A stretch of 19,283 nucleotides of DNA from Bdellovibrionota bacterium. GTDB taxonomy: Bacteria; Bdellovibrionota_C; UBA2361; JBGSMV01. Of this stretch, positions 3,648-19,283 are shown piece after piece. How positions within the stretch are numbered: position 1 is the first letter of the stretch; each line of letters opens with the position of its first letter. The stretch covers positions 1 to 19,283 of the forward strand of contig JBIKWF010000085.1 of assembly GCA_044356455.1 (NCBI GenBank). Direction: 5' to 3'. The notes under the pieces are model-generated. The model was not told the origin of the DNA. It made no database searches and saw only the letters and a program-made list of their open reading frames with translations. The position numbers were made by a program, and so were the translations under genes.

Positions 3648-6600
3648 TTATGCACATGCCGTTTGCGACTTGTTGGCCTTAGTACCTTTCTTGCAGGCGA
3701 CACAGGCAGTTGCCCCTCTCGACTCGGAGACCATTCCCTTGGGGCACTTTAAACATGCCACGCCACCGGCATTAGGTGAGTAAGTTCCCGCCGGACAAAG
3801 CGCACATGAAGAACTTCCCATTACTGAGCTCACCGCGCCCGCTGGGCATTCAATGTAGGACGAGGCGCCGCGCGTTGGGACATACCCTCCTCGAGGCGCG
3901 GCCAAGCAGTCAGAGCCGCCCGCAAGGGGCGCGTACGTTCCGACTCCGCACTTGGTGCAGGAGGTGGAACCTGCCGCTGAATACGAACCGGCAGCGCAGG
4001 TAGCACAGGTTGTTCCGCCCACAGAACTGGAGAAGGTTCCTGCAGCGCACGTAGTGCAGGCGACGCTTCCCGTGTTCGGCGCAATAGTTCCCGCACTGCA
4101 AGAGCTGCAGACCGCTGAACTTGGGAAAGAAGCAAAGGTACCTAGAGAACACGCCACGCAGGCAGAGGAGCCTTCCGCTGAGTAGAATCCTGCGGGACAT
4201 GCGGTGCAGGTCGAAGCATGCGCGGCGCTAAAAGTCCCCGCGGCGCACTTGGCGCAGGTTACGCTGCCAAATTCTGGGCTATATGTTCCAGCTTCACAAT
4301 CAGTGCAGGCGGAAAGTCCTTCGCCTTCCCCCCGCGTCCCTGGCGCACAAGCTGCGCAAGAACTGCCGCCTACGCTCGCCGAAAAGGTACCGGTCCCACA
4401 GGTTATACACTCTGTCTGGGAAGGATTTGCATAGGAGCCTAAGGGACAAACAGTGCAAGCCTCTGCTCCACTTGACGAAATAAAGCCTGAGGGGCAGTCA
4501 ACACAGGAGGATGCTCCGGCGCTCGGTTGGTAGGTTCCTGCCGCACATTGATTGCATGAATTCGAGCTCGGGGAGGCCGAGAACGTGCCTGGGCCGCAGG
4601 CACTACAACTTGAGCTTTCTGCGCCAGAAAAATATCCCGCTGGACAAACAGCGCAGCTCTTTGCTCCTGGTCCACTAAACGTGCCTGGATCGCAATCTTC
4701 ACACGTAGTTGAGGCTGGATCGCTCGAGAAAGTTCCAGGAGAACATTCTTTGCAGCTGATACCGTTGCTAAAGTTTACTGCGGTGCCTGGGGGGCAGTCC
4801 TTACACGTGCTAGCTCCGAGACTGTCAGTAAAGCTTCCCGTCCCACAGGGTGCGCAGCTTGACATGCCGGGTGAAGAAGTAAATGTGCCAAGTGGACATG
4901 GCTGACATACGGCATCTCCTGGTCCCGAAAAAGTTCCAGCGGGGCACGTGAGACACTCTCCCAGCCCTGCCCCTGGCGCATAAGTACCTCCACTACATGG
5001 AGCACAAGTTTGAGACCCTGATGAGGCTGCAATCGTCCCTGGCGCACAAAGAGAGCATGAAGCTGCACCTTCAGACGCCGAAACACTTCCCACGGGACAA
5101 GGGGTACACGCCGCCTGCCCGGAAGGCGCATAACTTCCCGGATTACATGCCGTGCAGCTTGTTTGCGCAGAAAGCGGTTGAACGGTACCTGCAGGACACG
5201 CCGTACACGCACTTATTCCCGTGAAAGCCCCAAAAGTGCCGGGCCCGCATGGTAAGCATGAGCTGCCGCCTTCGGACGGCATGTAATGTCCCAGCGAGCA
5301 CGGATCGCAGATCGAAGCTCCCCCCGCAGAGAAACGTCCCGCAGGGCACAACGCACACGTAGTAGCTCCTGTTCCTTCCGTGAAAGTCCCACTCGGACAG
5401 TTTATACAAAGTTGAGCGCCAGAATTAGGCTGATAGGTTCCCGCGCCACATTCCTGACAGGAGGCAGCCCCAGACGAAGAGGAAAAAGATCCGGAAGCGC
5501 AATTAAAACATGTAGTAGCCCCAGTATCGGGTGCGAATCGGCCCGCAGGGCACTGAGCACAAGCACGCCCTCCGCTTACGATGCTATACGTCCCCACCGC
5601 ACACTCGGTGCACGAGGTTGCACCAGGAGCAGCGGCAACAGTACCTGGGGAACAGGCATCGCAAGTAGAGGAGCCGATAGTTGGAGAAAAACTTCCCGCA
5701 GCGCACTGTATACATAGGGCAGCTCCCATAGTTCCGGAGAAAGACCCGCTGGGGCATGGAGTACAGGACACTCCTCCTGGAGATGCCGAAAATTCTCCCG
5801 GATCGCAGGGAGTGCACGTGTCATTGCCATCGCCTGTAGAAACTTGGCCTGCCGGACAATCAAAGCAAGCACTCATGCCTGAGCTTGGAGCGTACTTCCC
5901 CGCCGGGCACTGTGAACAAGTGACACTTCCAGGACTTGCACTTGCCGAGCCCACGGCGCAATCAAGACAGATGCTTGCCCCTAACGATGGAGCATACTTG
6001 CCTGGCTGACAGTCTTGGCAGGCAGAGGCCTTGGCCACAGAAGAGAAGGTGCCCGCGGCGCACTCTTCGCAGCTATCTCCCGTCGCAGATGGCACATGGC
6101 CAGTGCCACAGGCATCGCAGATACCAAGTTCAGGAACAAGATATTCATCTGAGCTACAGGTGCTCGGGCAAAAACTAAAATTCCCGTCTTTCAGAAGATG
6201 CGCAACCTTACCGCAGCGGCCCAGGGCTGCCCCACACTCTTCATCTGCCTGACAAATGCTACCAAGCGTAGCTCCGCCCGAGACAGCAACACAGGTGTTG
6301 TTGAGATTAGATAGTGCCGTCGCTACCAAAGGAATAAGCTGCAACGGATAAGCAACAGAAACCTGAGCCTGACAGGAAAGTCCCTGGGGGTAGGCATTTA
6401 AAGAATCGACTAACTGAAAAACGTCAGCCGGAGTTGGAGAGAATAGAAGCCCCGTATCAGAGTAGCTAAGATCCGCCCCCCCAAAACAGGGAAGGGAAAC
6501 TGCTTCGATAAGATCAATGAGGGCCCTATCTAAAAGCGCGGAGGAGCCCCTTGCATACACATCTAGAGAGACACTACCGACCGTAGAATTTCCAGAATCA

Positions 6601-6974
6601 AGAACCCCACGTGCACAAAGGCCACTTCCTTCTACTACCAATGCCCGGCGACAGGCATTTGCCGCTATCGTGGTTGCTGATTGATCGCACTGGATATACG
6701 CGTTTACACAATCTGCGATGGCTTCGCTGCGCGCCTCAATAAAGGCCCGCGACGCCGTAGTTAAGGCAACCGAACAATTATGCGAAGCACTGTCCACTTG
6801 ATTCGTGGGAGCTGAATCATCTCCGCCGAGAGCGTGCGCAATGGGCGAAATGATGAAGGCAGAAACAAGAAGGTTGAAAAGAAGGAAAAACACGCAACTC
6901 TTCAAGGCTGTTCTTGAAAACGCGGCGCTCCGAATGTTCTCTATCAGAATGAAAGGCCGAAAATGTACCCGCAT
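3648..6974 (-). CDS. Secreted cysteine-rich repeat protein (Ephrin_rec_like/GCC2_GCC3-type CxxCxxG repeats)
   Basis: The ORF is open to 7034; the first ATG is at 6974 and the true start is uncertain. A hydrophobic signal-like segment FFLLFNLLVSAFIISPIAHA is followed by a ~220-aa Cys-containing domain. Then come about 840 aa of ~17-aa units CxxCxAGT(F/Y)SxxxGxxx. The gene ends 21 nt upstream of the fibre gene start. Confidence 0.85.
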   Translation of the reverse strand: MRVHFRPFILIENIRSAAFSRTALKSCVFFLLFNLLVSAFIISPIAHALGGDDSAPTNQVDSASHNCSVALTTASRAFIEARSEAIADCVNAYIQCDQSATTIAANACRRALVVEGSGLCARGVLDSGNSTVGSVSLDVYARGSSALLDRALIDLIEAVSLPCFGGADLSYSDTGLLFSPTPADVFQLVDSLNAYPQGLSCQAQVSVAYPLQLIPLVATALSNLNNTCVAVSGGATLGSICQADEECGAALGRCGKVAHLLKDGNFSFCPSTCSSDEYLVPELGICDACGTGHVPSATGDSCEECAAGTFSSVAKASACQDCQPGKYAPSLGASICLDCAVGSASASPGSVTCSQCPAGKYAPSSGMSACFDCPAGQVSTGDGNDTCTPCDPGEFSASPGGVSCTPCPSGSFSGTMGAALCIQCAAGSFSPTIGSSTCDACSPGTVAAAPGATSCTECAVGTYSIVSGGRACAQCPAGRFAPDTGATTCFNCASGSFSSSSGAASCQECGAGTYQPNSGAQLCINCPSGTFTEGTGATTCALCPAGRFSAGGASICDPCSLGHYMPSEGGSSCLPCGPGTFGAFTGISACTACPAGTVQPLSAQTSCTACNPGSYAPSGQAACTPCPVGSVSASEGAASCSLCAPGTIAASSGSQTCAPCSGGTYAPGAGLGECLTCPAGTFSGPGDAVCQPCPLGTFTSSPGMSSCAPCGTGSFTDSLGASTCKDCPPGTAVNFSNGISCKECSPGTFSSDPASTTCEDCDPGTFSGPGAKSCAVCPAGYFSGAESSSCSACGPGTFSASPSSNSCNQCAAGTYQPSAGASSCVDCPSGFISSSGAEACTVCPLGSYANPSQTECITCGTGTFSASVGGSSCAACAPGTRGEGEGLSACTDCEAGTYSPEFGSVTCAKCAAGTFSAAHASTCTACPAGFYSAEGSSACVACSLGTFASFPSSAVCSSCSAGTIAPNTGSVACTTCAAGTFSSSVGGTTCATCAAGSYSAAGSTSCTKCGVGTYAPLAGGSDCLAAPRGGYVPTRGASSYIECPAGAVSSVMGSSSCALCPAGTYSPNAGGVACLKCPKGMVSESRGATACVACKKGTKANKSQTACA

Positions 6975-7193
6975 GAGGAGTTCAGGCTCCAATGATGCTA
7001 AAGATGCTACTTGCAAGCGCCTTCCCAATCGCAAGCGACTGAGAAGTTAAAATGGGCGCCAGAATAAGACCGCTAATCTATCAGCTCGAACCTATACTTT
7101 CTCGATTCCTCGTTTGTACCTCTCTGTCAGAGCCTTCGCTACAACCAGAATAGGTTCGATGTCCCTTTACACCATATCGATGCAAACATCGTC

Positions 7194-8979: not shown

Positions 8980-10410
8980 ATGCAGCCTGCTCTTAAGGAA
9001 CCCCTTGAATCTCGGGACGCCCTGGCCTTCAGGCGCATCCTCTTTGCTATCTGCCCTACCGGCGCCTATTGCCGCGAGGACCGCTGTCAGTCTTTTTTCT
9101 CGTACGAACTTATCCCCACGATGCGAGCTCCTCTTGAGGAGTGTGAAGCAGCAGGGGCAATTCGCGCGGCAGGCGGGCGCGCTATTGTCATTGACGCACC
9201 CGCAGAGGGAATTGCAGGAGACTTATTTCTCACGCGAGTCAAAGAGGCGTCTCCCGACCTTATTATTATAGTCGCCACGTTCGGGACTCTTGAGGCTGAT
9301 TTAGCCTGGGCAGCGCGGTTTAAATCTGCCTTTCCAGAGATTCCCGTGGGAATGCGAGGAGCGCCTTGCTACACCCATGACAGAGACATTCTCGCAAGAA
9401 CCCCTGAGCTCGATTTCTGTTTAAAGGGCGAGTACGAAACTATTTTCGATGCAATCACCAAGAATGGATATCATGGAGCACCAGGAGTCACCTATCGCTC
9501 AGCGAGCTCTGTGATCCCCGCAACGTCTATCCCTCGCATCATGGACCTTGATAGTCTTCCGCTCCCCGACCGCTCAGCGGTGAATGGCAAACTCTATAAG
9601 GTGCGAGGACTCGGCGTCTCTCAGGCCACGATTCGCGTGCAGCGTGGCTGCCCCTTCCCCTGCTCTTACTGCTTGGTTCATACCGTAAGCGGAAACGAAG
9701 CTCGCCACCGCTCTCCTGCCCACATCGCTTCCGAAATGCGCAGCTTGATGGAGGCAGGAACTTCTTGCTTCTATCTTCGAGCGGATACTTTTACCCTAGA
9801 CCGCAGGTGGGTTCTCGAGCTCTGCGAGGCATTAGTAAGGGAGTGTCCCGGCGCCCAGTGGGTAACCACCACGCGCGCCGACCGTGTTGATGACGAGCTC
9901 ATCCGAGCTATGGCACGAGCGGGATGTTATGGACTTAGCTTTGGGCTCGATGTTGCAAGTAAGACCATTGCCCAAAAGGTCCACAAATATGCCAAACCCG
10001 AAGTGGCGCAGCAGGCCTTTAGGGCCTGCGATAGGGCGAATATTATTGGACTTGCCTATCTAATGATTGGGTTTCTCTGGGAGACTGAAGAGACGCTCGC
10101 CGAAACGGAGCAGTTCATTAGGTTTGTGAGGCCCGACTTACTGACGGTCCATTTCGCCCATCCTTATCCAGGCACACAGTATTACGAGGATTTTCTTCGC
10201 GCAGGAGCCTCCGTCATATCGCCTCGGGCACAGGCTGAGCCAGCCTTGGAAACAACAGGAGTCTCTGCGAAGGATCTAGAACGCACCGCGCGGCGCTGGT
10301 TACGTGAGCATTACCTTAGGCCGAGTGTTTTGTACTCTCTTTCCCGAAAGGGCACCCGTATCTTCTTTCGTAGACTTAAGTATTCTTGCCAAGACGTCAG
10401 AGGCTTTTAG
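8980..10410 (+). CDS. Cobalamin (B12)-binding domain radical SAM protein
   Basis: RGCPFPCSYC (CxxxCxxC), ADTFT, TRADRVD, MARAGC..SFG, MIGFLWET and PYPGT motifs, with an N-terminal B12-binding-like Rossmann segment. GGAGG RBS at 8966-8970 precedes ATG 8980. Confidence 0.92.
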   Translation: MQPALKEPLESRDALAFRRILFAICPTGAYCREDRCQSFFSYELIPTMRAPLEECEAAGAIRAAGGRAIVIDAPAEGIAGDLFLTRVKEASPDLIIIVATFGTLEADLAWAARFKSAFPEIPVGMRGAPCYTHDRDILARTPELDFCLKGEYETIFDAITKNGYHGAPGVTYRSASSVIPATSIPRIMDLDSLPLPDRSAVNGKLYKVRGLGVSQATIRVQRGCPFPCSYCLVHTVSGNEARHRSPAHIASEMRSLMEAGTSCFYLRADTFTLDRRWVLELCEALVRECPGAQWVTTTRADRVDDELIRAMARAGCYGLSFGLDVASKTIAQKVHKYAKPEVAQQAFRACDRANIIGLAYLMIGFLWETEETLAETEQFIRFVRPDLLTVHFAHPYPGTQYYEDFLRAGASVISPRAQAEPALETTGVSAKDLERTARRWLREHYLRPSVLYSLSRKGTRIFFRRLKYSCQDVRGF

Positions 10411-10547
10411 GGTCTCGGGTGATTGAGTAAGATTTTGGAGCACAGGATTTACCCCAACGCCCTGAATCTATTGCAAAGAATGATTTTCTCGGACTCCAAT
10501 CATTAAAGACTCCCCGATTTTCTAGGCTGAAACGACCGACATCATCT

Positions 10548-10568
10548 GTAATACTATTACTAGTAATA
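10548..10568. promoter_or_regulatory. Overlapping palindromes, probable autoregulatory operator of the TA operon
   Basis: GTAATA-C-TATTAC (10548-10560) overlaps the perfect palindrome TATTACTAGTAATA (10555-10568), directly before the AGGAG RBS (10571-10575) of the antitoxin. Confidence 0.7.
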
Positions 10569-10581
10569 CTAGGAGTCTCGC

Positions 10582-10812
10582 ATGCGAGTAACATCAAAGG
10601 GGCAAGTTACCATCCCACAAGAGCTTCGGCGTAAGGCCAACATTGTTCCTGAGTCCGAGGTCGAATTTTGGTTTGAAAACGGAGTGATTCACTTGCGAAA
10701 GAAAGTGTCAGGCAAGAGTGGTCGTGGGCTAAAGGTCGTAGCGCGAATGAAAGCGAGCGCGAAGATTTCAATGTCTACTGAACAAATCATGAAGTTAACG
10801 CGTGGCGAGTAA
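10582..10812 (+). CDS. vapB: AbrB/MazE/SpoVT-family DNA-binding antitoxin (VapB-like)
   Basis: N-terminus MRVTSKGQVTIPQELRRK..PESEVEF, C-terminus MSTEQIMKLTRGE. AGGAG RBS; the stop overlaps the next start (TAATG). Confidence 0.92.
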   Translation: MRVTSKGQVTIPQELRRKANIVPESEVEFWFENGVIHLRKKVSGKSGRGLKVVARMKASAKISMSTEQIMKLTRGE

Positions 10813-11042
10813 TGAATTACACCTTTATTGACAGCAATGTCGTGATAGACATTCTGTCAGAAAATAAGGAGTGGCACATACTTAGTGCCACCCACTTTAG
10901 TTGTGATGGGCAATTGAGACAGCCCAACTCGGACGAAGCGACCGTGCCCTACAAAGTTTGGTTAAGCAATTGTATTTATAGAATCTTCTTCAAGCAGAAG
11001 GAGAGCCTCAAGCGGCCTTCTTTCCAGCCCTCTTCGGCTTAA
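10812..11042 (+). pseudogene. vapC: Truncated PIN-domain toxin (VapC-like); only the first ~23 codons are PIN-like
   Basis: MNYTFIDSNVVIDILSENKEW matches the start of a PIN domain and is translationally coupled to vapB. Similarity is lost at ~10881, where the repeat end TTAGTGCCACCCACT begins. The ORF is 76 aa versus ~130 aa for a full VapC, and no later PIN motifs are seen. Confidence 0.8.
10882..10896 (+). repeat. Isolated left end of the 98/99-bp repeat family
   Basis: TTAGTGCCACCCACT is identical (15/15) to 16717-16731 and 13/15 identical to 11241-11255. Confidence 0.75.
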
Positions 11043-11160
11043 GTGCTAGCTCTAGTCCGAGTCTATCGAGAACTGTGGTCTGAACAACATTCTCCTTTAG
11101 GCAGCAACCACCGCCCTGCACCAGGTGCTTGGCTCAGATAGTCAATTCTCCGCCGCTCGT

Positions 11161-11207
11161 CCTCACCGGCCTGCCGGTGAGGCGCTAAACCAGCCCCTCG
11201 CAGGGGC
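11161..11207. other. Two adjacent GC-rich hairpins (REP-like or terminator-like)
   Basis: CCTCACCGGC-CT-GCCGGTGAGG (11161-11182) and GCCCCT-CGC-AGGGGC (11193-11207), between convergent genes. Neither has a clear U-tract. Confidence 0.55.
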
Positions 11208-11232
11208 GGCATCTTGGCGTAGAACCGGCTCC

Positions 11233-11330
11233 CGCGCGGATTAGTGCCCTCCACTAACGTGACGATCTCTATGTCAGCTAGATTGGGGGAAGTTCAGTGA
11301 TTGGCATTCGAAATAGTTGGGGTAAACCAG
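11233..11330 (+). repeat. 98-bp intergenic repeat, copy 1
   Basis: Aligns by eye to 16709-16807 with 10 substitutions and 1 gap. It starts with the hairpin TTAGTG-N5-CACTAA and ends TCGAAATAGTTGGGGTAAACCAG. Confidence 0.93.
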
Positions 11331-11345
11331 CGAAGGAGCAATCGG

Positions 11346-13781
11346 CTACAACTTCGCCATCTCTTCAAGCTGAGCAAGCTCATTATCGCGTGAATCTTGA
11401 TATTCCATAACAGCGCTCGCTATCACCCACCCGTATTGCAACCTTAACGCCTTGGAGTACGGCTCAAGATAGGCTTTAAAATCTTCAACCGCACTACCGT
11501 CCTGCAATCGGGAATCCACTTTTTTTAGAGCCTCTCCAAGCGCTTGAGCGATTGTCTCCGATGTTACTATGGTAAGCCGGCCCGTTTCTTCAGCAAATTT
11601 TTTTGCGTGCCGATTAACATTCCAAGCGCCTTCGAATCCCAGTATCTTCGGGCAAGATCCACTGTAAATCGGTTCGGCTAGATTGCGATCTTCGCCCACG
11701 ATCGCGATGTCCGCCGACGCGAACAAATCCTTGAGCTCACCACGAGTGTTGAGAATAACAATATCGAAATCCGAAAAGCTCTTCCCTTCGCAAATTGAGT
11801 CGCCGCGGTTACGGTCGTCTTCGCTGCGAATACCTACCTTAAATCCCAAGTTTTTCAGGTCTTCTGCCAATGCACTGCTAGGCTGTCTTAGAGCCAGAAT
11901 TGTCAATGATTTTTGCTCACCACCCCTTGTTGCTTTTAATGCCTCCACTACATCTAGCGTTTCGCACAGGGATGGACTCGCTACTATTACTACTGCTCGT
12001 GGATCATTGATCAATTTATCACGTGTTTTTCCTCCGGCGGGCGTAGCCGCGGAGAGAAATTTTAGCGGTGAGTATGGAAGATTTACTCCTGAAATGGACC
12101 CATCGCGGGCTCTTGCTAGAACTATTTCATGGTGGTCACTAAACGTGATCAGCGGATAAAGAAATTCATCGCGAGGAGGAAGGTTCATGGCGTCGAGCCC
12201 AGGGTCTTTGCGTCCTTCATGATAGGTACGATTCTTAACTCGATCTTCACCTAGCTCTAGAAGCGCCATAGCATTCCGGATGGAAAACGTTGCGGCTACC
12301 TCATAGTTGTTAAACAAAAGCTGGTAGCGAATAGGAAGTGAGCCGAAGTCAATGTGGCCACCTGTAGTAAGATATTTCTCAACTCCATCTACTCGACCGA
12401 GCGCGCTCAAAGCGATGAGAGTGTTCAGCGGATCCAGTTCAAAAGCGTGCGCCAACGAACCATCGCGAATACAATCCGTCTTTCCTAGCTTTTCGATTCC
12501 TCGCTCAAAGTCTCCAAAAAACTTTCGGTTAGAGAACATACCTAGTACACGCTTTTCCTGATATGGCGAGAGGTTTGCCTTCTCGGCTCCCACCAAAGCA
12601 AGGACATCCTTAAGTATACCGGGGTCGCACATACCTGGAGTAGCGAGGCAAAAATACAAAAACTCGACTGGCTGCTCCTTGAGCATTCGGCAAGACTCAA
12701 GAAAGCCAAGCTCTGCAATCACACTTTCGATTCTTTTTGGTGAAAGCGGGGAATTTACTGACACGAAAACGTGGGGGAAACTTCTTAATGCCCTTTCTGC
12801 ATCATCCTGCCCGAACCTGGATACTAGATACTTAAAGCTTTCAAATTGATCGATCTGACCTAAAAGACTCTTCTCATAGGTGTTGTTAATTTTTATAATC
12901 GTATCGAGAATCAGCCGCGGTAGCTTTCCAATGGCTGTTCTGCTCGGACCACAAAGCAACTCCCGAATGTCGCAACCTTTCGCCATTCGAGCCAACGATT
13001 CTAAGACAAAGTTAGGAGCAATTTCTATCAATGTCGAAAGTTGCGTTTCTGCTCCGTCAAGGTTCGCCCGATTCTCCCTTAACTCTATTAAGGAATTGAA
13101 ATCAGCGATCCGTTTGGAATTTTGAAAAATGTTAATAAGTTGCCGAGTTGATGTCGCACTCGAACCGGAAATCGAGACGGCAAAAATATTTATAGCCTGA
13201 ACATTCTCGTCAATCGCTGAGTGGCAACTATCAGAATACCCTTTAGACAATACCTCAATGGCCATGTCTTCACTGAGGCCGCCCACAGTGGCCCTTAATC
13301 TCAGTCGAAAGTCAGCCTCGCTGATGAGTCTTTCCGCTACCAGATCTGCTAGACCCGGGGACTTCGTACAAAGTTTGGAAACTATAGAGAGCTCGGACTC
13401 GTCAAGACTTAGCGGCCCACCATGGTGGAGTGCTATAAGCCTGGTGAGTGGGCCGCACGGTTCGCAGAACAGTCTGGAAACATCACTGTAGGAGTAGGTG
13501 TTTTGAAGCTCCCCTTCGGAATGTCGTGATAGGCGATCAACGATCAACTTCTCAACCGTCCAAAGACCGTGCAAAGCAATTGCTTCGTTGAGTAACACAA
13601 CTGACCCAGAGCGTTCGGTCAAAGCCTCAGCGATATTTTTGCTGCCGATGCCTAAATCAGAGATTGATGGGAGGTAGTCTTCAGGCAAGTGTTGACCGAT
13701 CAGACTCTTGGCGCGAATAACTTCCGAGAAGCGATCTTCCTCGCTTTTTGTTTGTGAAGGCGGAGAAATATTTGCGTTCAT
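11346..13781 (-). CDS. Hypothetical 811-aa protein: unknown helical N-terminal region fused to a divergent WaaA/KdtA-like (Kdo transferase, GT-B) C-terminal domain
   Basis: The C-terminal third has SPLKF, VVIVAS, LTILALRQP and DIVILNTRGELKDLFASADIAIVG..RNLAEP. These occur in the same order as the WaaA motifs GNLKFD, WIAAST, LILVPRHP and DTMGELxxLYxxADxAFVGG..HNxLEP. The N-terminal ~500 aa are unrecognised. Confidence 0.7.
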   Translation of the reverse strand: MNANISPPSQTKSEEDRFSEVIRAKSLIGQHLPEDYLPSISDLGIGSKNIAEALTERSGSVVLLNEAIALHGLWTVEKLIVDRLSRHSEGELQNTYSYSDVSRLFCEPCGPLTRLIALHHGGPLSLDESELSIVSKLCTKSPGLADLVAERLISEADFRLRLRATVGGLSEDMAIEVLSKGYSDSCHSAIDENVQAINIFAVSISGSSATSTRQLINIFQNSKRIADFNSLIELRENRANLDGAETQLSTLIEIAPNFVLESLARMAKGCDIRELLCGPSRTAIGKLPRLILDTIIKINNTYEKSLLGQIDQFESFKYLVSRFGQDDAERALRSFPHVFVSVNSPLSPKRIESVIAELGFLESCRMLKEQPVEFLYFCLATPGMCDPGILKDVLALVGAEKANLSPYQEKRVLGMFSNRKFFGDFERGIEKLGKTDCIRDGSLAHAFELDPLNTLIALSALGRVDGVEKYLTTGGHIDFGSLPIRYQLLFNNYEVAATFSIRNAMALLELGEDRVKNRTYHEGRKDPGLDAMNLPPRDEFLYPLITFSDHHEIVLARARDGSISGVNLPYSPLKFLSAATPAGGKTRDKLINDPRAVVIVASPSLCETLDVVEALKATRGGEQKSLTILALRQPSSALAEDLKNLGFKVGIRSEDDRNRGDSICEGKSFSDFDIVILNTRGELKDLFASADIAIVGEDRNLAEPIYSGSCPKILGFEGAWNVNRHAKKFAEETGRLTIVTSETIAQALGEALKKVDSRLQDGSAVEDFKAYLEPYSKALRLQYGWVIASAVMEYQDSRDNELAQLEEMAKL

Positions 13782-13826
13782 GTCAATTAGTTATGCCGCT
13801 GTGGACGGTTCGTGTTGCATTGTCGC

Positions 13827-13860
13827 TTGCCCCTTCTCTGGTCCACCCCAACTTTTTCAA
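13827..13860 (-). repeat. Inverted copy of the GTTGGGGT-core motif
   Basis: The reverse complement TTGAAAAAGTTGGGGTGGACCAGAGAAGGGGCAA matches 11308-11341 (TCGAAATAGTTGGGGTAAACCAGCGAAGGAGCAA) at 28/34. Confidence 0.88.
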
Positions 13861-13942
13861 CTCATCATTTCGGCGGCAACTTATGACGCATTCCCAATAA
13901 TTTTTAAACTTTTAATCGGAATTTGAGGAGGTGAGGTAGGTC

Positions 13943-13971
13943 TGATTCGCAATCGAAATAGTTGGGGTGCA
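13943..13971 (+). repeat. Partial (right-end) copy of the repeat
   Basis: TGATTCGCAATCGAAATAGTTGGGGT matches 11298-11323 at 24/26 and is followed by GCA, as at 15213-15224. Confidence 0.85.
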
Positions 13972-14054
13972 ACAGACGTCTCCTATGGCGCAGAACGAGA
14001 AAGAGTTAATGAATCTGGAGGGGCTGCGGGCTAATTGAATTAATCTTTAAGCTG

Positions 14055-15143
14055 TTATCGCGAGAGCACATCCCTAAGCCACTTCTTATTCTCCTGGACT
14101 ATTTTTGCGAGGTACCTTCCTCTTGCAAGTGATTTTTTAGAGTTCTCAATCATAAAATCTGGGAGGGAGTCACCAATAAGCTTGTCAATGTGTGCTGAAA
14201 CTCTTTTAATTTGATTGACTGCTTTTGTATGCGCTCTACCAATAGCAGCGATTACCGAGGCTTCAGACGTAAATGAATCTTCTGGCGAAGCGATACCTAC
14301 AACGTATGCAAGTGCAATAGTCCGCTCAACTTGAAGTACACCAAGCGTCATTTCATTTACTGCGGTGGCATAAATATCCTTCCAGTTTTGCAAGTGTCTG
14401 AACTCGGGATGCTGAGATATATCTTCCTTTCTGGCGTGTATATTAAAGTCATATTCCCCTGAGCTACACTCTTCTAGCTTCTCAGATACAATTTCAGCAT
14501 GTTTCTCTGATTCGGGAGTGTTACGAAGCCATTCTTCTGTCCGCTCACTTCCACTAACTAATAGGATTGCTTCATAACCAAGGCGCTCACGTTGAATTTG
14601 TGGATTGTTTAATCGTTTTAAATGAGACACCAATTCTTTCAGTGAAAATCCCCCCTCTTGGTCTGGTATTGTAAATGCATCTGAACTTTCACAAAATTCT
14701 TTGAATGCTGCTCTCTCAGGGTTACTTTCTTGACCTGAGGCCATTAGGTGGAGCGAGTATAGGGAAGCAAGCAATTTATAATTCGGCAGAATTTCCGGTG
14801 TTTCTAGACCTGCAGTGGGTACTTCAGACTTTCTTCTCCTTTTATGTGCAGTCGGCTTAGTCAATTCTGCAATCGTTACCTCAATAGAAACGATGGGCTC
14901 ATCTACCGTTGATTCTCCGTATAGTGACTCTTTAACTACCTGACCTATCAGCCTTTGAAATTGAGTTACCAAAAGTCCAATTTGCGCCTTAGTAAGCGCA
15001 GGCAATCCCATTTTGTGGAGCGAATCAGCTATCGATTCAATTTCTTCATTTTCTTTGATGGCACGCAGTGCGTCAGCGGAATTACAGAGATATTCTCTTT
15101 TTAGATCGAGCACATCTGCGACTAGGTTTTGATCAACTCTCAT
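14055..15143 (-). CDS. Hypothetical alpha-helical protein (orphan, ~362 aa)
   Basis: Long ORF with charged, helical composition, visibly more AT-rich than the fibre genes. First ATG at 15143 (MRVDQN). No recognisable family motif. Confidence 0.75.
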   Translation of the reverse strand: MRVDQNLVADVLDLKREYLCNSADALRAIKENEEIESIADSLHKMGLPALTKAQIGLLVTQFQRLIGQVVKESLYGESTVDEPIVSIEVTIAELTKPTAHKRRRKSEVPTAGLETPEILPNYKLLASLYSLHLMASGQESNPERAAFKEFCESSDAFTIPDQEGGFSLKELVSHLKRLNNPQIQRERLGYEAILLVSGSERTEEWLRNTPESEKHAEIVSEKLEECSSGEYDFNIHARKEDISQHPEFRHLQNWKDIYATAVNEMTLGVLQVERTIALAYVVGIASPEDSFTSEASVIAAIGRAHTKAVNQIKRVSAHIDKLIGDSLPDFMIENSKKSLARGRYLAKIVQENKKWLRDVLSR

Positions 15144-15212
15144 ATACCTATGAAGTCCGTCACAAAAGGGAAAGAAACATCCGTTCTTATTTTGGCAAAC
15201 TAGAAACAAAGA

Positions 15213-15224
15213 AGTTGGGGTGCA
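15213..15224 (+). repeat. Short core copy of the motif (AGTTGGGGTGCA)
   Basis: 12/12 identical to 13960-13971; intergenic, 70 nt upstream of the 15143 start. Confidence 0.6.
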
Positions 15225-15298
15225 GGAGGTCGAAGGCTGCGGCCTCCAAATTTTGGCTGCCCCTGATGTACAAGCGTTATGGAGGCGGCGGGAAACGT

Positions 15299-15521
15299 GT
15301 GCCGTAAGGCGGCACTTTCTGGTGCTGCGCTGCGAAGCATCGTGCGAGGATGATTCGAACTCGCAAGGTAAGACTCGCTCAACTGGATACCTGCCAGGCT
15401 ACAATGTTGAGTGCCTCAAGGCAGATCGTCACTGCTAACCAGCTAAAAAAACGCATTTTTTCACCACCTTCGTTTCTCTGAAGCTAGGCTCAGCCTGCGC
15501 TATAATGCCGCCCTACGGCAC
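15299..15521. repeat. Inverted pair of short palindromes (REP-doublet-like)
   Basis: GTGCCGTAAGGCGGCA (15299-15314) and TGCCGCCCTACGGCAC (15506-15521) are reverse complements at 15/16, and each is itself a hairpin. Confidence 0.65.
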
Positions 15522-15728
15522 CTTCTGCCCGCGGTCCGCATAACATCCCCGCAACCAAGAGCAAGACGAGGCGTTCGAGTTGGCACTCATGGCGGTAACG
15601 GGAGACGCGATTCCCTTTCGAAAATGACCGGAGACAATTTTAGCAGAGCAAGGGCTCCCCTACTCCGCCCGAGAATAACTTTCAAAAGAGTGCTGATGAC
15701 AACTGCGTAGAGCGAGGGGAGGACGTCG

Positions 15729-15848
15729 ATGAGCGATTCACTGTACGAGCAATTTAGAGAGCTATTAGAAGGCGACACTCTTTCTCCCGAAGAGAAGGAA
15801 GAGCTAAGTCGAAAAATTCTTTCAATTATATTTGGAGACATGGAGTAG
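15729..15848 (+). CDS. Small acidic helical protein (39 aa), not in the ORF track
   Basis: MSDSLYEQFRELLEGDTLSPEEKEELSRKILSIIFGDME*. Strong GAGGGGAGG RBS just upstream; the stop lies 2 nt before the ATG of the next gene. Confidence 0.65.
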   Translation: MSDSLYEQFRELLEGDTLSPEEKEELSRKILSIIFGDME

Positions 15849-15850
15849 TC

Positions 15851-16585
15851 ATGGATCCGCAGAAAATATCACCAGGAGCCCAGTCCGACATATCAAGGCT
15901 TACCAAAGGGGAGGACCGGGCTGACGTTGCGCTCGATGCGCTTCAGGATTGCGATCTGACCCCGACGCAGATTCGGAAACTTACACGGTTGCTCCGTTCG
16001 GAACAAATTAAGCAGAGTCGCGTTTTACCGCGCCTTGTTGACGGAAAGGAAATTGTAACGGTTGATGAGGCGCTCCGCCCTAGGCTGGAGATGCCTCGTG
16101 ACGCCGAACAATTTAAATTCCCAGAAATTACACCTGTCGGTCGGCTACAAAAGAGCACTGTCGATGGCCATATTGCCGTATCCGGCAAAGTCGCGATTGG
16201 TTCTTGGGTCTTCAATACACTTCTCTCTGAAGGATCATTTGGCAAAACAGTAGAAGAGCAAAGGGCGTATGCCGAACGGTTTGGCTACCAACTTGTGAGC
16301 CCCGAGGTGCATCGTGTGTATGTAGAAACGCTTATTAGAAATTCGCGCCATGGTTCCGCAGCTGATAGCTATGCCCTTGAGATTTACAGACAGCGCTACG
16401 TTCGGGGTTGGGAAAGAGGATTTAGCGTTGAGCTTGTTGAGGACCTCTCCGGTGGCCATTTGGATCTTAATCCTGTCAAGCCGGAACCATTCCCTGACTT
16501 GGGATTCGGATTGGGTAGTAAGACCGCCGGTGCATTGTTCATTAGCCGAGAGTCGAGTGAGAGATATAGGCGCGAAAGGACATAG
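15851..16585 (+). CDS. Hypothetical protein (244 aa, orphan)
   Basis: ATG with GGAG RBS at 15842-15845 and protein-like composition. No family recognised. Confidence 0.72.
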   Translation: MDPQKISPGAQSDISRLTKGEDRADVALDALQDCDLTPTQIRKLTRLLRSEQIKQSRVLPRLVDGKEIVTVDEALRPRLEMPRDAEQFKFPEITPVGRLQKSTVDGHIAVSGKVAIGSWVFNTLLSEGSFGKTVEEQRAYAERFGYQLVSPEVHRVYVETLIRNSRHGSAADSYALEIYRQRYVRGWERGFSVELVEDLSGGHLDLNPVKPEPFPDLGFGLGSKTAGALFISRESSERYRRERT

Positions 16586-16708
16586 GCGCGGTCGGAAAAC
16601 TTGAAACAACAGATAATAAGAATGTGGTCCTGCTTAACACTCAGTAGATGCGTGATCCACGGCGGCATCGAGTTAAGCAGAGACCCGCGCTGATTCCACA
16701 ATGAGGCG

Positions 16709-16807
16709 CGCGCGGATTAGTGCCACCCACTAAAGTGACTATCTCTGTGTCAGCTAGAGCGGGCGAAGGTCAGTGATTGGCATTCGAAATAGTTGGGGGT
16801 GAACCAG
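16709..16807 (+). repeat. 99-bp intergenic repeat, copy 2
   Basis: About 89% identical to 11233-11330 in the same orientation. Like copy 1, it lies just beyond the stop codon of a minus-strand gene. Confidence 0.93.
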
Positions 16808-16842
16808 TTAGTGCGGGCGCTTGTTCTAGGAGGGCTCCTAGA

Positions 16843-18397
16843 TTAGTCGGGGAAGCAAGTATTACCGTGAAAATCAGTGTCATAACTCGGATTAATCACG
16901 CCGTAGCAGGTCAATGTCCCAGCCCCACCCTCGTTGAGCGTCAATCCATCGAGCAATTCAGAGAATCGTGCGGTAACGGTTGCCGAAGCGGCTGCCACAA
17001 CCGTCTCATTAGGCGCGCCGTTCGCCTGAATAGACGAGTGCAAAATATTAACACGGGTCCCGGCTCCGCTTCCGCGGACGCAGCCCACGTCCGGTGGTCC
17101 GTTCAGAGAACAAGTTACTGATGTGTTTCTCACGGTTACTGTGCTGCCCCCGGATGCCGTGATGCCGATCGCTAAGCCTGAGCCGTTTTCACCGATGGCG
17201 ACGGAGGAGTTCTCAACGGTCAAGCGCGCAACTCCCTCGTTTGAAATTCCAGTGGCCGCAGTCGACGGAAATGTAACCGCAATCTGCGCGTTTCGCATAG
17301 TAATCGAACCAGCGTTGAGGATACGGACTGCAGTTAGGGAGGTGTTTGAAAACGCGAAGATCCGAAGCTGTGTCACCTCTAAATTCGCATCAGAGAACCG
17401 CACAGGCACAGTCGAGGTCCCTTGGCTAAAGTATCTGAGTCACCCCATCGATTGTTGCCTGCGAGTCCTCAACGTCGATCGCAAAGCCGTCGTTATCCTC
17501 GGCGATCTCTAACAAGATGTCCTTGAGTGCAACACCGTTCGCTGTATCGATGCTAATGGTACGAGGGGATGCTGCGCGGTTGTCAAAAATTAATAGGTTC
17601 GAAGCCGAAGAATCACTCTGCATCAGAAGCACCCCATCGTCGTTTGCGTTCACCAGAAACGTGGCGTTGGTCCCGCTACCCACCAAGCTAATACCGGGGC
17701 TTGCCGTGATGCGGCTCGTAATAGAGTAGGTACCGGGCGCAAGGTAGATAACCGCTGGGTTATCCGCATCGGTCCCATCAGCTACCGCAGTGGTGATGGC
17801 GGTTGAGATGGAGCTTACGGGCCCCCCGGGAGCGACGTAGTAGACCATCGCTGGCGACAGTGTCGCATCGATAGTTCCTACCGTTGTCTGCAGCGTGGAA
17901 ATGGCGCTGTTTGCCGTTGAAACGGAACTGAGGAGGCCAGTGATACTCGTCGCTTGACCCGACACGGTGGATGAGAGCGAGGCGACGGTAGCGTTAGTAG
18001 TAGCTAGTCCCGATGTAAGAGTTGCTATGCTCGCCGTGTGTCCTGCTACAGTTGGTGAGAGACCTGCAACGACACTGGAGGTGGACTGCAAGTCAGAGGT
18101 TAAGGTCGAGATGTTCCCGTTTGCGGCCGTAACACTGCTTGAGAGCGTTGAGATGTTGGTGTTCGAATCTGCAAGTGAAGCGGTAAGATTATTGAGCGGT
18201 GTCGAGTAGGCTGATGCGGCGAATTTCGTTTCGCTCTTTTTGCACCTAACTCTCAGTGTGATCGCACCCGTTGTGTTATTTACGCACGCTACCTTTGGCG
18301 GAGTAGCGGCGAAGCTCATGCTCGGCTGACAAAGGGTAAGCATGAGAGCAAAACAAAGTACGAAGCGGCGCTGGTGAAAACCGGACTTGGATTTCAT
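16843..18397 (-). pseudogene. Secreted fibre/tailspike-like protein (signal peptide, Cys motif, coiled-coil stalk, pectin-lyase-like beta-helix) split by one frameshift near 17430-17440
   Basis: ORF 17426..18397 has a signal peptide, heptads (ISTLSSSVTAANGNISTLTSDL) and a beta-helix start (YVAPGG..SISTAI..VIYLAPGTY). Beta-strand repeats continue in another frame (LRYFSQGTSTVPVRFSDANLEV..) to the stop at 16843. It could be a real lesion or a sequencing error. Confidence 0.78.
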
Positions 18398-18499
18398 AGG
18401 CTATGTTCTTCAATACAGTGAGCATTCATCTGCCTTTCTTTCTATTCACTCGGTTTTTCGGCTTGATACCTTGAGTGGAAGTGGCAATCCGGGTGACGT

Positions 18500-18790
18500 A
18501 ATTGGTGGGAACACCGAGCAGGCGTCCCGTTTGGATGAAACGCGGTTACTGAATAAGAGAGGCATTCGCAGAAAGCCCACAGGCAGACGTGATCTAACGC
18601 GTAGACATGGGAGTTGTAATGAGGGGTTGGATGAGAGTACGTCAGGGTAGCCATCAGCATTCACATCTCCAATCAGAGCAACCCCGCCGCCAAGGGCAGG
18701 ACGTGCGCTTTCAACAACGGTATCGCCCGAAGAGAAAGTCGAATCTGCCGTCGCTGTTGCGATCTAGAAGTCTGGGAGATCGTGAATCGT
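18500..18790 (-). pseudogene. Degenerate FG-GAP/VCBS repeat gene fragment
   Basis: LDRNSDGRFDFLFG (about 18726-18767) and ALIGDVNADGYPDVL (about 18635-18679) are in different frames, with VTAFHPNGT further downstream in the other frame. No start or intact ORF; boundaries are approximate. Confidence 0.55.
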
Positions 18791-18826
18791 ATCAAGGGGG
18801 GTATCCCCGAGGGCTTGGGCTTAATC

Positions 18827-19249
18827 CTAGCCTTCTATTGGGTGTGTTACCCAACTGTTCAACCAGTAACTAACCAGTCCGTTAATGGAAATTGCAAGAA
18901 GAATGAGAATTGTCCAACGCAAACCTCTTTCAGAATATTCCCAGGGGAATTTTCCCCTTCGAAAGCAGATCCAAATAGCAATCGAAAGCGGAATTAGGGC
19001 AAAAAACAATCCCACGACACCGGTGAATACACGTTCAATTGCCTCCACTATTAAGAAGTCAGGAAGAACTTTACAGTCACAAGTTACACCGGCCGGGCAC
19101 GTGGGGTTAGGGCACTGTTTAAAGTAAGCACTCCACACTCCCACTTGCCCCAAGAAAAGTACAAGTTTCAGAAACAGCAAGGCGCAGTAAGACACAACCA
19201 ATTGAAGGAGAAATCCCAGAATTGAATTAGCAAATTTGACTTCCCCCAT
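18827..19249 (-). CDS. Small membrane protein (3 predicted TM helices) with a Cys-rich loop
   Basis: 140 aa with GAGG RBS, three hydrophobic segments and the loop CPNPTCPAGVTCDC between TM1 and TM2. Confidence 0.7.
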   Translation of the reverse strand: MGEVKFANSILGFLLQLVVSYCALLFLKLVLFLGQVGVWSAYFKQCPNPTCPAGVTCDCKVLPDFLIVEAIERVFTGVVGLFFALIPLSIAIWICFRRGKFPWEYSERGLRWTILILLAISINGLVSYWLNSWVTHPIEG

Positions 19250-19283
19250 TTGGGCCTCTGCTGAAGATTAACGCTAGATACCC

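Follow-up and report, generated by a model that had tools for sequence, protein, structure and literature searches.

The window analysed here, 19,283 nt of contig JBIKWF010000085.1 from a Bdellovibrionota bacterium (GenBank assembly GCA_044356455.1), contains a row of orphan genes separated by short intergenic copies of a GTTGGGG motif. The locus raises the question of whether these copies are recombination sites at which single genes are captured and shuffled as cassettes, as an earlier note on this sequence had proposed, or have another origin. It is quite probable that the sites are the ends of insertion sequence (IS)-like elements, bounded by terminal inverted repeats (TIRs) and encoding a RAYT-like Y1-HUH transposase of ~325 aa, which were left in the window as mini-elements and lone ends. 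A dedicated system for capturing and shuffling genes was not supported; the sites are oriented element ends that pair into mini-elements.

Distribution of the motif

All six GTTGGGG words listed in the earlier note were found in the window, and the first 10 kb contained none, as had been stated; however, only five of the six were sites of a real repeat family, the word at 10452-10458 on the minus strand scoring as background. At the genome-wide density of the word (0.111 per kb), 0.71 copies would be expected in the 6.36 kb concerned (Poisson P 9e-5, for a region picked after the fact). Three exact copies of the longer word GAAATAGTTGGGG were found, at 11310, 13955 and 16786; a further copy, at 13846-13858, has one mismatch. 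When up to three mismatches were permitted, 12 matches were counted compared with 4.43 in shuffled sequences, and 0 of 200 shuffles reached 12.

The complete motif, designated type A, consists of AAAAAGTTGGGGTGNAC followed by CA(G/A) and a tail of ~10 nt. A matrix built from 19 genome-wide seeds gave 22.4, 34.1, 28.7 and 19.7 bits for the sites at 11316, 13845-13852, 13961 and 15214, respectively, and 35.8 bits for the site at 16792 once an extra G was permitted. The word at 10452-10458 scored -6.2, close to the median of -7.2 for 158 genomic GTTGGGGT words; therefore, it is probably a chance occurrence, at best a decayed type A end. The genome scan with a position weight matrix that had been suggested as a check returned 31 type A sites of at least 18 bits in the genome (4.7 Mb) and none in its reversed sequence, which served as a control. 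Therefore, the motif is a genome-wide repeat and is not confined to the orphan array. The scan thus bore out a real family; across the genome, the neighbours of its sites also included ordinary genes, among them those for flagellin, an ABC binding protein, a TPR protein and an AAA ATPase. Element ends often adjoined flagellin-like genes (G000:C100, C113, C23 and C19; G064:C55; G020:C100), a tendency that may be due to chance.

A second end type, B, with the core AGTGGGTGGCAC, had been missed previously. Its 11-mer occurred 28 times in the genome and once in the control, and three copies, one of them decayed, were present in the window. The 31 A and 28 B sites were spread over 28 contigs. Only 4 of these 59 sites lay inside long open reading frames (ORFs), which make up 74% of the genome, as expected of surviving insertions; on the same count, the idea that the motif is a protein-coding repeat (KKLGCTK) was dropped. 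No Rfam match was found across 10300-19283.

Transposases with the motif at their ends

Contigs C29, C88 and C179 of this genome were found to end in near-identical gene copies (93-96% DNA identity) with a type A end 71 nt upstream. The encoded protein of ~325 aa carries NHVH and YFYANP motifs and gave weak matches, below the cut-offs, to Y1_Tnp and to the NCBIfam RAYT model NF047646 (E 1e-8 to 1e-11). Residues H60, H62, Y121, N125 and P126 were invariant across 25 related sequences. A search with PF01797 alone returned 3 genes that were not near A sites; the relevant enzymes were not among them and were located through ORFs at contig ends.

The transposase family was present in 72 of the 91 genomes of the order, and the exact A 13-mer in 25 of the 91. 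At four loci in three relatives (G064:C55, G065:C227, G074:C67 and G074:C166), the 13-mer lay on both sides of the gene and faced outward, which identifies the type A motif as the terminal inverted repeat of IS-like elements with this transposase. Complete sister elements on C140 and C84 were bracketed by B ends, and their proteins were 97% identical to each other and 42% identical to the C29 enzyme. The model of the sister protein (pLDDT 91) had Escherichia coli TnpA-REP (4ER8) as its best structural match (E 2.7e-7). Two end types with separate transposases therefore coexist in this genome. These results supported the earlier suggestion that the sites belong to a RAYT/Y1-HUH enzyme encoded elsewhere, since the A ends match Y1-HUH elements on other contigs. 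The note had itself stated that its proposal would be refuted if the motif matched the ends of a known IS at another place in the genome, and such a match was found, though to an uncatalogued IS.

Named records with close transposase relatives were largely from Bdellovibrionota. Two pattern scans of metagenomes gave 0 matches, and a viral scan gave 21 single matches that are likely due to chance.

Because TIRs are typical of DDE elements, the mini-elements might be miniature inverted-repeat transposable elements (MITEs) moved by a DDE transposase, or might have been spread by ordinary recombination, the link to Y1 proteins being incidental. However, no target duplication was detected in 16 complete elements (17 were taken and one was dropped as incomplete), the longest shared word being 5.25 compared with 5.57 for mismatched pairs. 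Moreover, every complete element inspected with A or B ends encoded a Y1 protein, and the end sequence varied by element family across the order. We regard this explanation as extremely improbable.

Elements and genes in the window

The features of the window are as follows.

10452..10458, minus strand: GTTGGGG word, matrix score at background level
10582..10812, plus strand: vapB-like AbrB/MazE antitoxin gene, 76 aa (PF04014, E 2.4e-9); plasmid homologues precede PIN/VapC genes
10812..10880, plus strand: 5' remnant of vapC (PIN), recognised by likeness to a 137-aa VapC and cut after about codon 22
10875..10896, minus strand: lone type B end with its interior to the right, exact AGTGGGTGGCACTAA; core 10885-10896, 10-nt tail 10875-10884
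11080..11190, plus strand: transposase gene remnant, IS91-family-like; transposase-coding stretches on G000:C178 and in G001 match it at 71-77% DNA identity
11233..11330, plus strand: copy 1 of the hybrid mini-element, with a decayed B end on the left (11241-11255) and a type A end on the right (11310-11330)
11346..13781, minus strand: 811-aa orphan gene, weakly glycosyltransferase-like C-terminus, GC 47.5%
13830..13976, no strand assigned: A/A mini-element; the left end, 13830-13858, is on the minus strand and has a full tail (34.1 bits), and the right end is 13955-13976 (28.7 bits)
14055..15143, minus strand: 362-aa orphan gene, GC 42%
15208..15226, plus strand: lone decayed type A end (19.7 bits)
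15256..15544, no strand assigned: attC-like 3' half, then an ORF-poor segment with 39-nt complementary arms at 15276-15314 and 15506-15544
15851..16585, plus strand: 244-aa near-orphan gene with a single relative (36% identity)
16709..16814, plus strand: copy 2 of the hybrid mini-element, with a B end on the left (16717-16731) and, on the right, an A end that has one extra G (16786-16807)
16843..18397, minus strand: fibre/adhesin-like gene, two adjacent ORFs (323 + 188 aa)

In total, the window has three mini-elements, of which two are B/A hybrids and one is A/A, and two lone ends. The hybrids account for a 99-nt direct repeat, 89% identical, at 11233-11330 and 16709-16807, which had been overlooked previously; copy 2 has a tail in common with elements on C23. 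Their mixed ends suggest that the two enzymes may recognise each other's sites. The two ends of the A/A mini-element pair in the predicted fold (z -1.87); for the hybrids, folding did not exceed that of shuffled sequences (z 0.46 and -0.96). Two full-length A ends face the 811-aa gene and form a 35-nt, 83% inverted repeat. The start codon of the 362-aa gene lies ~65 nt inside the lone A end, an arrangement that autonomous elements show for their transposase gene.

The 811-aa, 362-aa and 244-aa genes were orphan or nearly so, in agreement with the earlier description, and the 362-aa protein had no usable Atlas match. In the vapBC module named in the earlier note, vapC proved to be broken. Similarity of the vapC remnant to the 137-aa VapC was limited to residues 1-34, no alignment was obtained with a second PIN protein, and a 76-aa ORF from the vapC start runs on to 11042, into element DNA. 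The remnant at 11080..11190 is presumed, from its motifs and not from a library match, to belong to the IS91 family. The half site at 15256, which may be attC-like, comes with its arms after the lone A end at 15214.

Reiteration and local copying of the ends

Tandem reiteration of the ends was frequent. At 12 loci in relatives, 36 of 38 reiterated A units stopped 9-14 nt past the core, and their inner starts ranged over 1-156 nt. A fixed outer end and a variable inner start are what would be left by an HUH nick ~10 nt outside the binding site followed by rejoining. In this genome, micro-duplications were found in the outer flank at 14 of 59 sites, compared with 3 of 59 in the inner flank and 5.5% at random. 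Judged by eye, some tails are consistent with a C|T cleavage site like that of TnpA-REP, but others are not.

In one relative, G017 (L114-L119, L274-L282), 278 exact B-type repeats were counted in a 2.6-Mb genome. It contains six near-identical elements whose left ends carry arrays of a repeat plus modules of 45-90 nt in varying order, and also stand-alone arrays of 4-20 repeats. Another, G029 (L120-L124), has a third end type, GTAGCCNGGCTAC, which is repeated in telomere-like fashion, in up to about ten units of 20-27 nt, at the left ends of elements.

The elements were also clustered: 29 of 47 had a neighbour within 8 kb, compared with 5.6 expected. Mini-elements on C16, C23, C51 and C100 had long matches only on their own contigs. 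A 120-nt A/A mini-element on C29, C88 and C19 showed homology only from repeat to repeat, which indicates that such units can move on their own. Autonomous copies are thus multi-copy and leave no target duplication, and mini-elements copy locally. The family looks actively mobile, unlike domesticated RAYTs.

Possible mechanism and comparison of strains

Nick-extend-rejoin chemistry was proposed for bacterial interspersed mosaic elements (BIMEs; PMC3333891, Fig. 7B), and by analogy we infer that it could apply to the elements described here. An enzyme supplied in trans would bind the core and nick single-stranded DNA ~10 nt outside it. It would hold the 5' end of the element covalently, as a phosphotyrosine on the strand that carries CCCCAACT, and the freed 3'-OH would be extended by the host polymerase. 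Rejoining of the held end to a 3'-OH further inside would give tandem reiteration of the end; rejoining further outside would delete adjacent DNA, as may have happened in vapC; and rejoining a few kb away would appear as local hopping of mini-elements. Insertions would survive between genes in dispensable islands, where ends would pile up among orphan genes and need not delimit them. If so, the reiterated ends predict cleavage ~10 nt outside the 13-nt core, and the question of how DNA is moved and amplified by RAYT-type enzymes becomes testable with short substrates.

Contigs from four runs, all low-depth sets, were compared with the window. A diverged strain, X7, differed at 31 positions in 695 nt at the border of the radical SAM and vapB genes. 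It showed 75-nt loose ends at 10875 and 10876, the upstream one of which, by our reading, continues the VapC frame. This breakpoint lies inside vapC, 8-10 nt beyond the B core, at the predicted B terminus, and it keeps a weaker form of the gene-shuffling idea alive. X7 bridged 10451 and 11316 in the same context, unchanged. The 244-aa and fibre genes had no cover in X7, which, at its low depth and with no contig joining across, is not evidence of their absence. The earlier note had also proposed a check for circular or empty-site junctions; none was found at any window site in the four low-depth sets. No syntenic relative was found: in 41 relatives and the 5 genomes of the family, matches were limited to the radical SAM gene and the IS91-like remnant, and in the empty-site comparison the flanks in genus g11 were only ~70% identical.

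Several points weigh against reading the sites as ends of these IS-like elements, or against parts of that reading. All copies of the A-type transposase in this genome run off contig ends, and flanking on both sides was seen only in relatives. End type does not follow the enzyme tree cleanly, type A requiring 5 changes on a quick version of the tree in which end labels were assigned by eye, some loosely, and on which no firm claim is based; therefore, which of the enzymes would act on the sites in the window is not fixed. The reiteration test imposed the 9-nt floor on its own result, and the 12 loci used had been picked for reiterated ends. The micro-duplications were mostly at B sites (10 of 28), and the signal at A sites (4 of 31) is not clear. 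The null for clustering was uniform, and both ends of one complete element count as neighbours. The position and strand of cleavage are those that the repeats predict, and the X7 breakpoint consists of two loose ends, one contig on each side, with no bridged junction.

Cassettes and gene capture

Integron cassette arrays carry attC sites with RYYYAAC/GTTRRRY hairpins. The array in the window resembles them in that short repeats separate unrelated genes and a toxin-antitoxin module is present, and in an integron-like system the motif would be a symmetrical recombination site, with the genes between sites excised as circles and reinserted. The gene-sized spacing of the sites, an integron integrase on C92 and the attC-like half beside 15214, if that likeness holds, would fit such a system. 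However, the sites are mixed in orientation and fall into two types unrelated to each other; they form pairs as the ends of elements, and they match transposase termini. A heuristic scan for attC gave 3 matches in the genome and 2 in the control and none in the window, which bears out the earlier remark that the sites are not canonical attC, and empty-site and circle joints were lacking in the four low-depth contig sets. An integron-like system is therefore highly unlikely.

The ends could also act as one-ended joining sites that import foreign genes in the manner of IS91/ISCR elements or Helitrons, so that the island grew by end-mediated capture. Either the held 5' end would be joined to incoming DNA or copying from one end would run through a neighbouring gene. 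Five good A ends and three B ends stand at nearly every module boundary of this low-GC island, its genes are orphans or nearly so, and the 811-aa and 362-aa genes belong to the lowest 2% of the genome by GC. Orphan blocks in the window, on C16 and on C100 lie between direct copies of a private mini-element; C29 and C88 carry different genes between the same mini-element and the same transposase end; and a similar array was found on G066:C40. C106 contains duplicated segments of toxin-antitoxin DNA with a border at or close to a B end, and the 35-nt inverted repeat facing the 811-aa gene exceeds the usual tail length.

The search for copied genes argued against capture. Among 193 local direct duplications, 9 were anchored at an end (0.42 expected; maximum 5 in 500 shuffles), and all 9 consisted of element DNA only, so that none carried a whole gene. 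No window gene had a paralogue elsewhere in the genome, and the transfer of an entire gene from one site to another was not observed. For the 811-aa gene, a single distant homologue was found, on a 3.4-kb contig without an A or B end. The clusters of G017, where read (9 regions, two in full), proved to be end modules, and the four low-depth contig sets contained no joints. The 51 genes adjoining sites had a GC content of 51.9%, only 1 point below the 52.9% of the rest, and 6 of 12 hand-picked ones had Pfam families. We consider capture unlikely. No literature on a cassette role for these ends was found.

In a broader form of this idea, each terminal repeat would be an independent rolling-circle-type origin, one enzyme or a pair of enzymes would act on mixed A and B ends, and the nicking and rejoining that reiterate the ends would also splice unrelated DNA onto them, so that orphan ends could build islands of accessory genes with no integrase or paired ends. 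This form is rather doubtful. If the ends do capture neighbouring genes, they would constitute an unrecognised HUH-driven route to variable islands; if they do not, the locus is a caution that the litter of transposon ends can mimic a cassette array.

The array on C106 (L283) is a side observation in its own right: it comprises higBA and PIN toxin-antitoxin genes with four B ends in the same orientation and partial duplications of toxin-antitoxin DNA.

Comparison with known systems

The elements are quite probably an undescribed variant of TIRtron/TIRYT elements and not a demonstrated cassette system. In the portion of the TIRYT paper available to us (Di Nocera, De Gregorio and Rocco 2013, PMC3733652), a gene for a RAYT-like tyrosine transposase lies between inverted repeats unrelated to repetitive extragenic palindromic (REP) sequences, and free repeat copies occur as singles, dimers and clusters in moderate numbers. 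The elements described here likewise have the HUH motif and catalytic tyrosine, inverted repeats on both sides and free repeats elsewhere. According to the same portion, many but not all TIRYT TIRs share GGGGWSAS; that consensus was not found here, where the core is AGTTGGGGTGNAC or AGTGGGTGGCAC and, by position counts, reads GGGGTGNAC. Near-identical multi-copy elements, hybrid ends and fixed-terminus reiteration, all present here, are not reported in that portion, in which TIRYTs are named from sequence alone and no mechanism is given.

The elements are probably related to subclass 2.1 of the TnpA-Y1 transposases (Quentin et al. 2018, PMC6006769), which corresponds to RAYT group 1 (Bertels et al. 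2017, PMC5581495) in the sections of both papers that were accessible. Shared features are the motifs NHxH, W[EQ] and Y---NP, the SS that follows the tyrosine, an HuH-to-Y distance of 59 and the lack of REP hairpins. As far as the accessible sections of PMC6006769 go, the proteins differ in length (~325-330 aa here compared with a median of 238), in having a W..G.....WPPG tail in place of Bac_DnaA_C/HTH (no such Pfam match was obtained at E values up to 1 in 3 proteins), and in the identity of intragenomic copies (97-100% here compared with a mean of 49%). Subclass 2.3 of the same classification fits in length, but its 55-aa core insertion is absent here.

The core fold (PDB 4ER8) is shared with E. 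coli TnpA-REP, and cleavage away from the bound motif together with nick-extend-rejoin chemistry, as presented in the available part of Ton-Hoang et al. 2012 (PMC3333891), fits the reiterated ends; the 278 repeats of G017 form BIME-like arrays. Unlike in REPtrons, no GTAG-footed REP hairpins were present in the element flanks that were read, and the gene is multi-copy and mobile-looking, whereas tnpA-REP is found at a single locus according to that part. With IS91/ISCR elements, as described in the accessible part of PMC13181058, the elements share HUH chemistry, the absence of target duplication, and one fixed and one variable end in aberrant products. However, the ends of IS91 are unlike each other (oriIS, terIS) and its transposase is larger and unrelated, whereas the same inverted motif stands at both ends here, and the mobilisation of adjacent genes, demonstrated for IS91, was not seen for the elements of this genome. 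From integron arrays the elements differ in that they have no sites with RYYYAAC/GTTRRRY hairpins, their orientation is mixed and the repeats are transposon ends. By these analogies, the elements may work like a RAYT/BIME or IS91-type system, while they lack the features that would place them among REPtrons, IS91 elements or integrons.

Other observations

Tandem repeats with GGTCGCGGCACC and GTAGCCCCGGTAC words at G000:C190:20587-29989 are probably arrays of further end types. The fibre/adhesin-like gene of the window appears to be split, its 323-aa and 188-aa ORFs lying 17 nt apart. A multi-copy element of ~510 nt (L219:11881-12390, on G066:C40), with no Rfam match at the gathering score, was found in many g11 genomes, most of the 35 searched. 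At 3648-7034, the window encodes a 1128-aa protein with 22 ephrin-receptor-like cysteine-rich repeats, beside a 1120-aa orphan.

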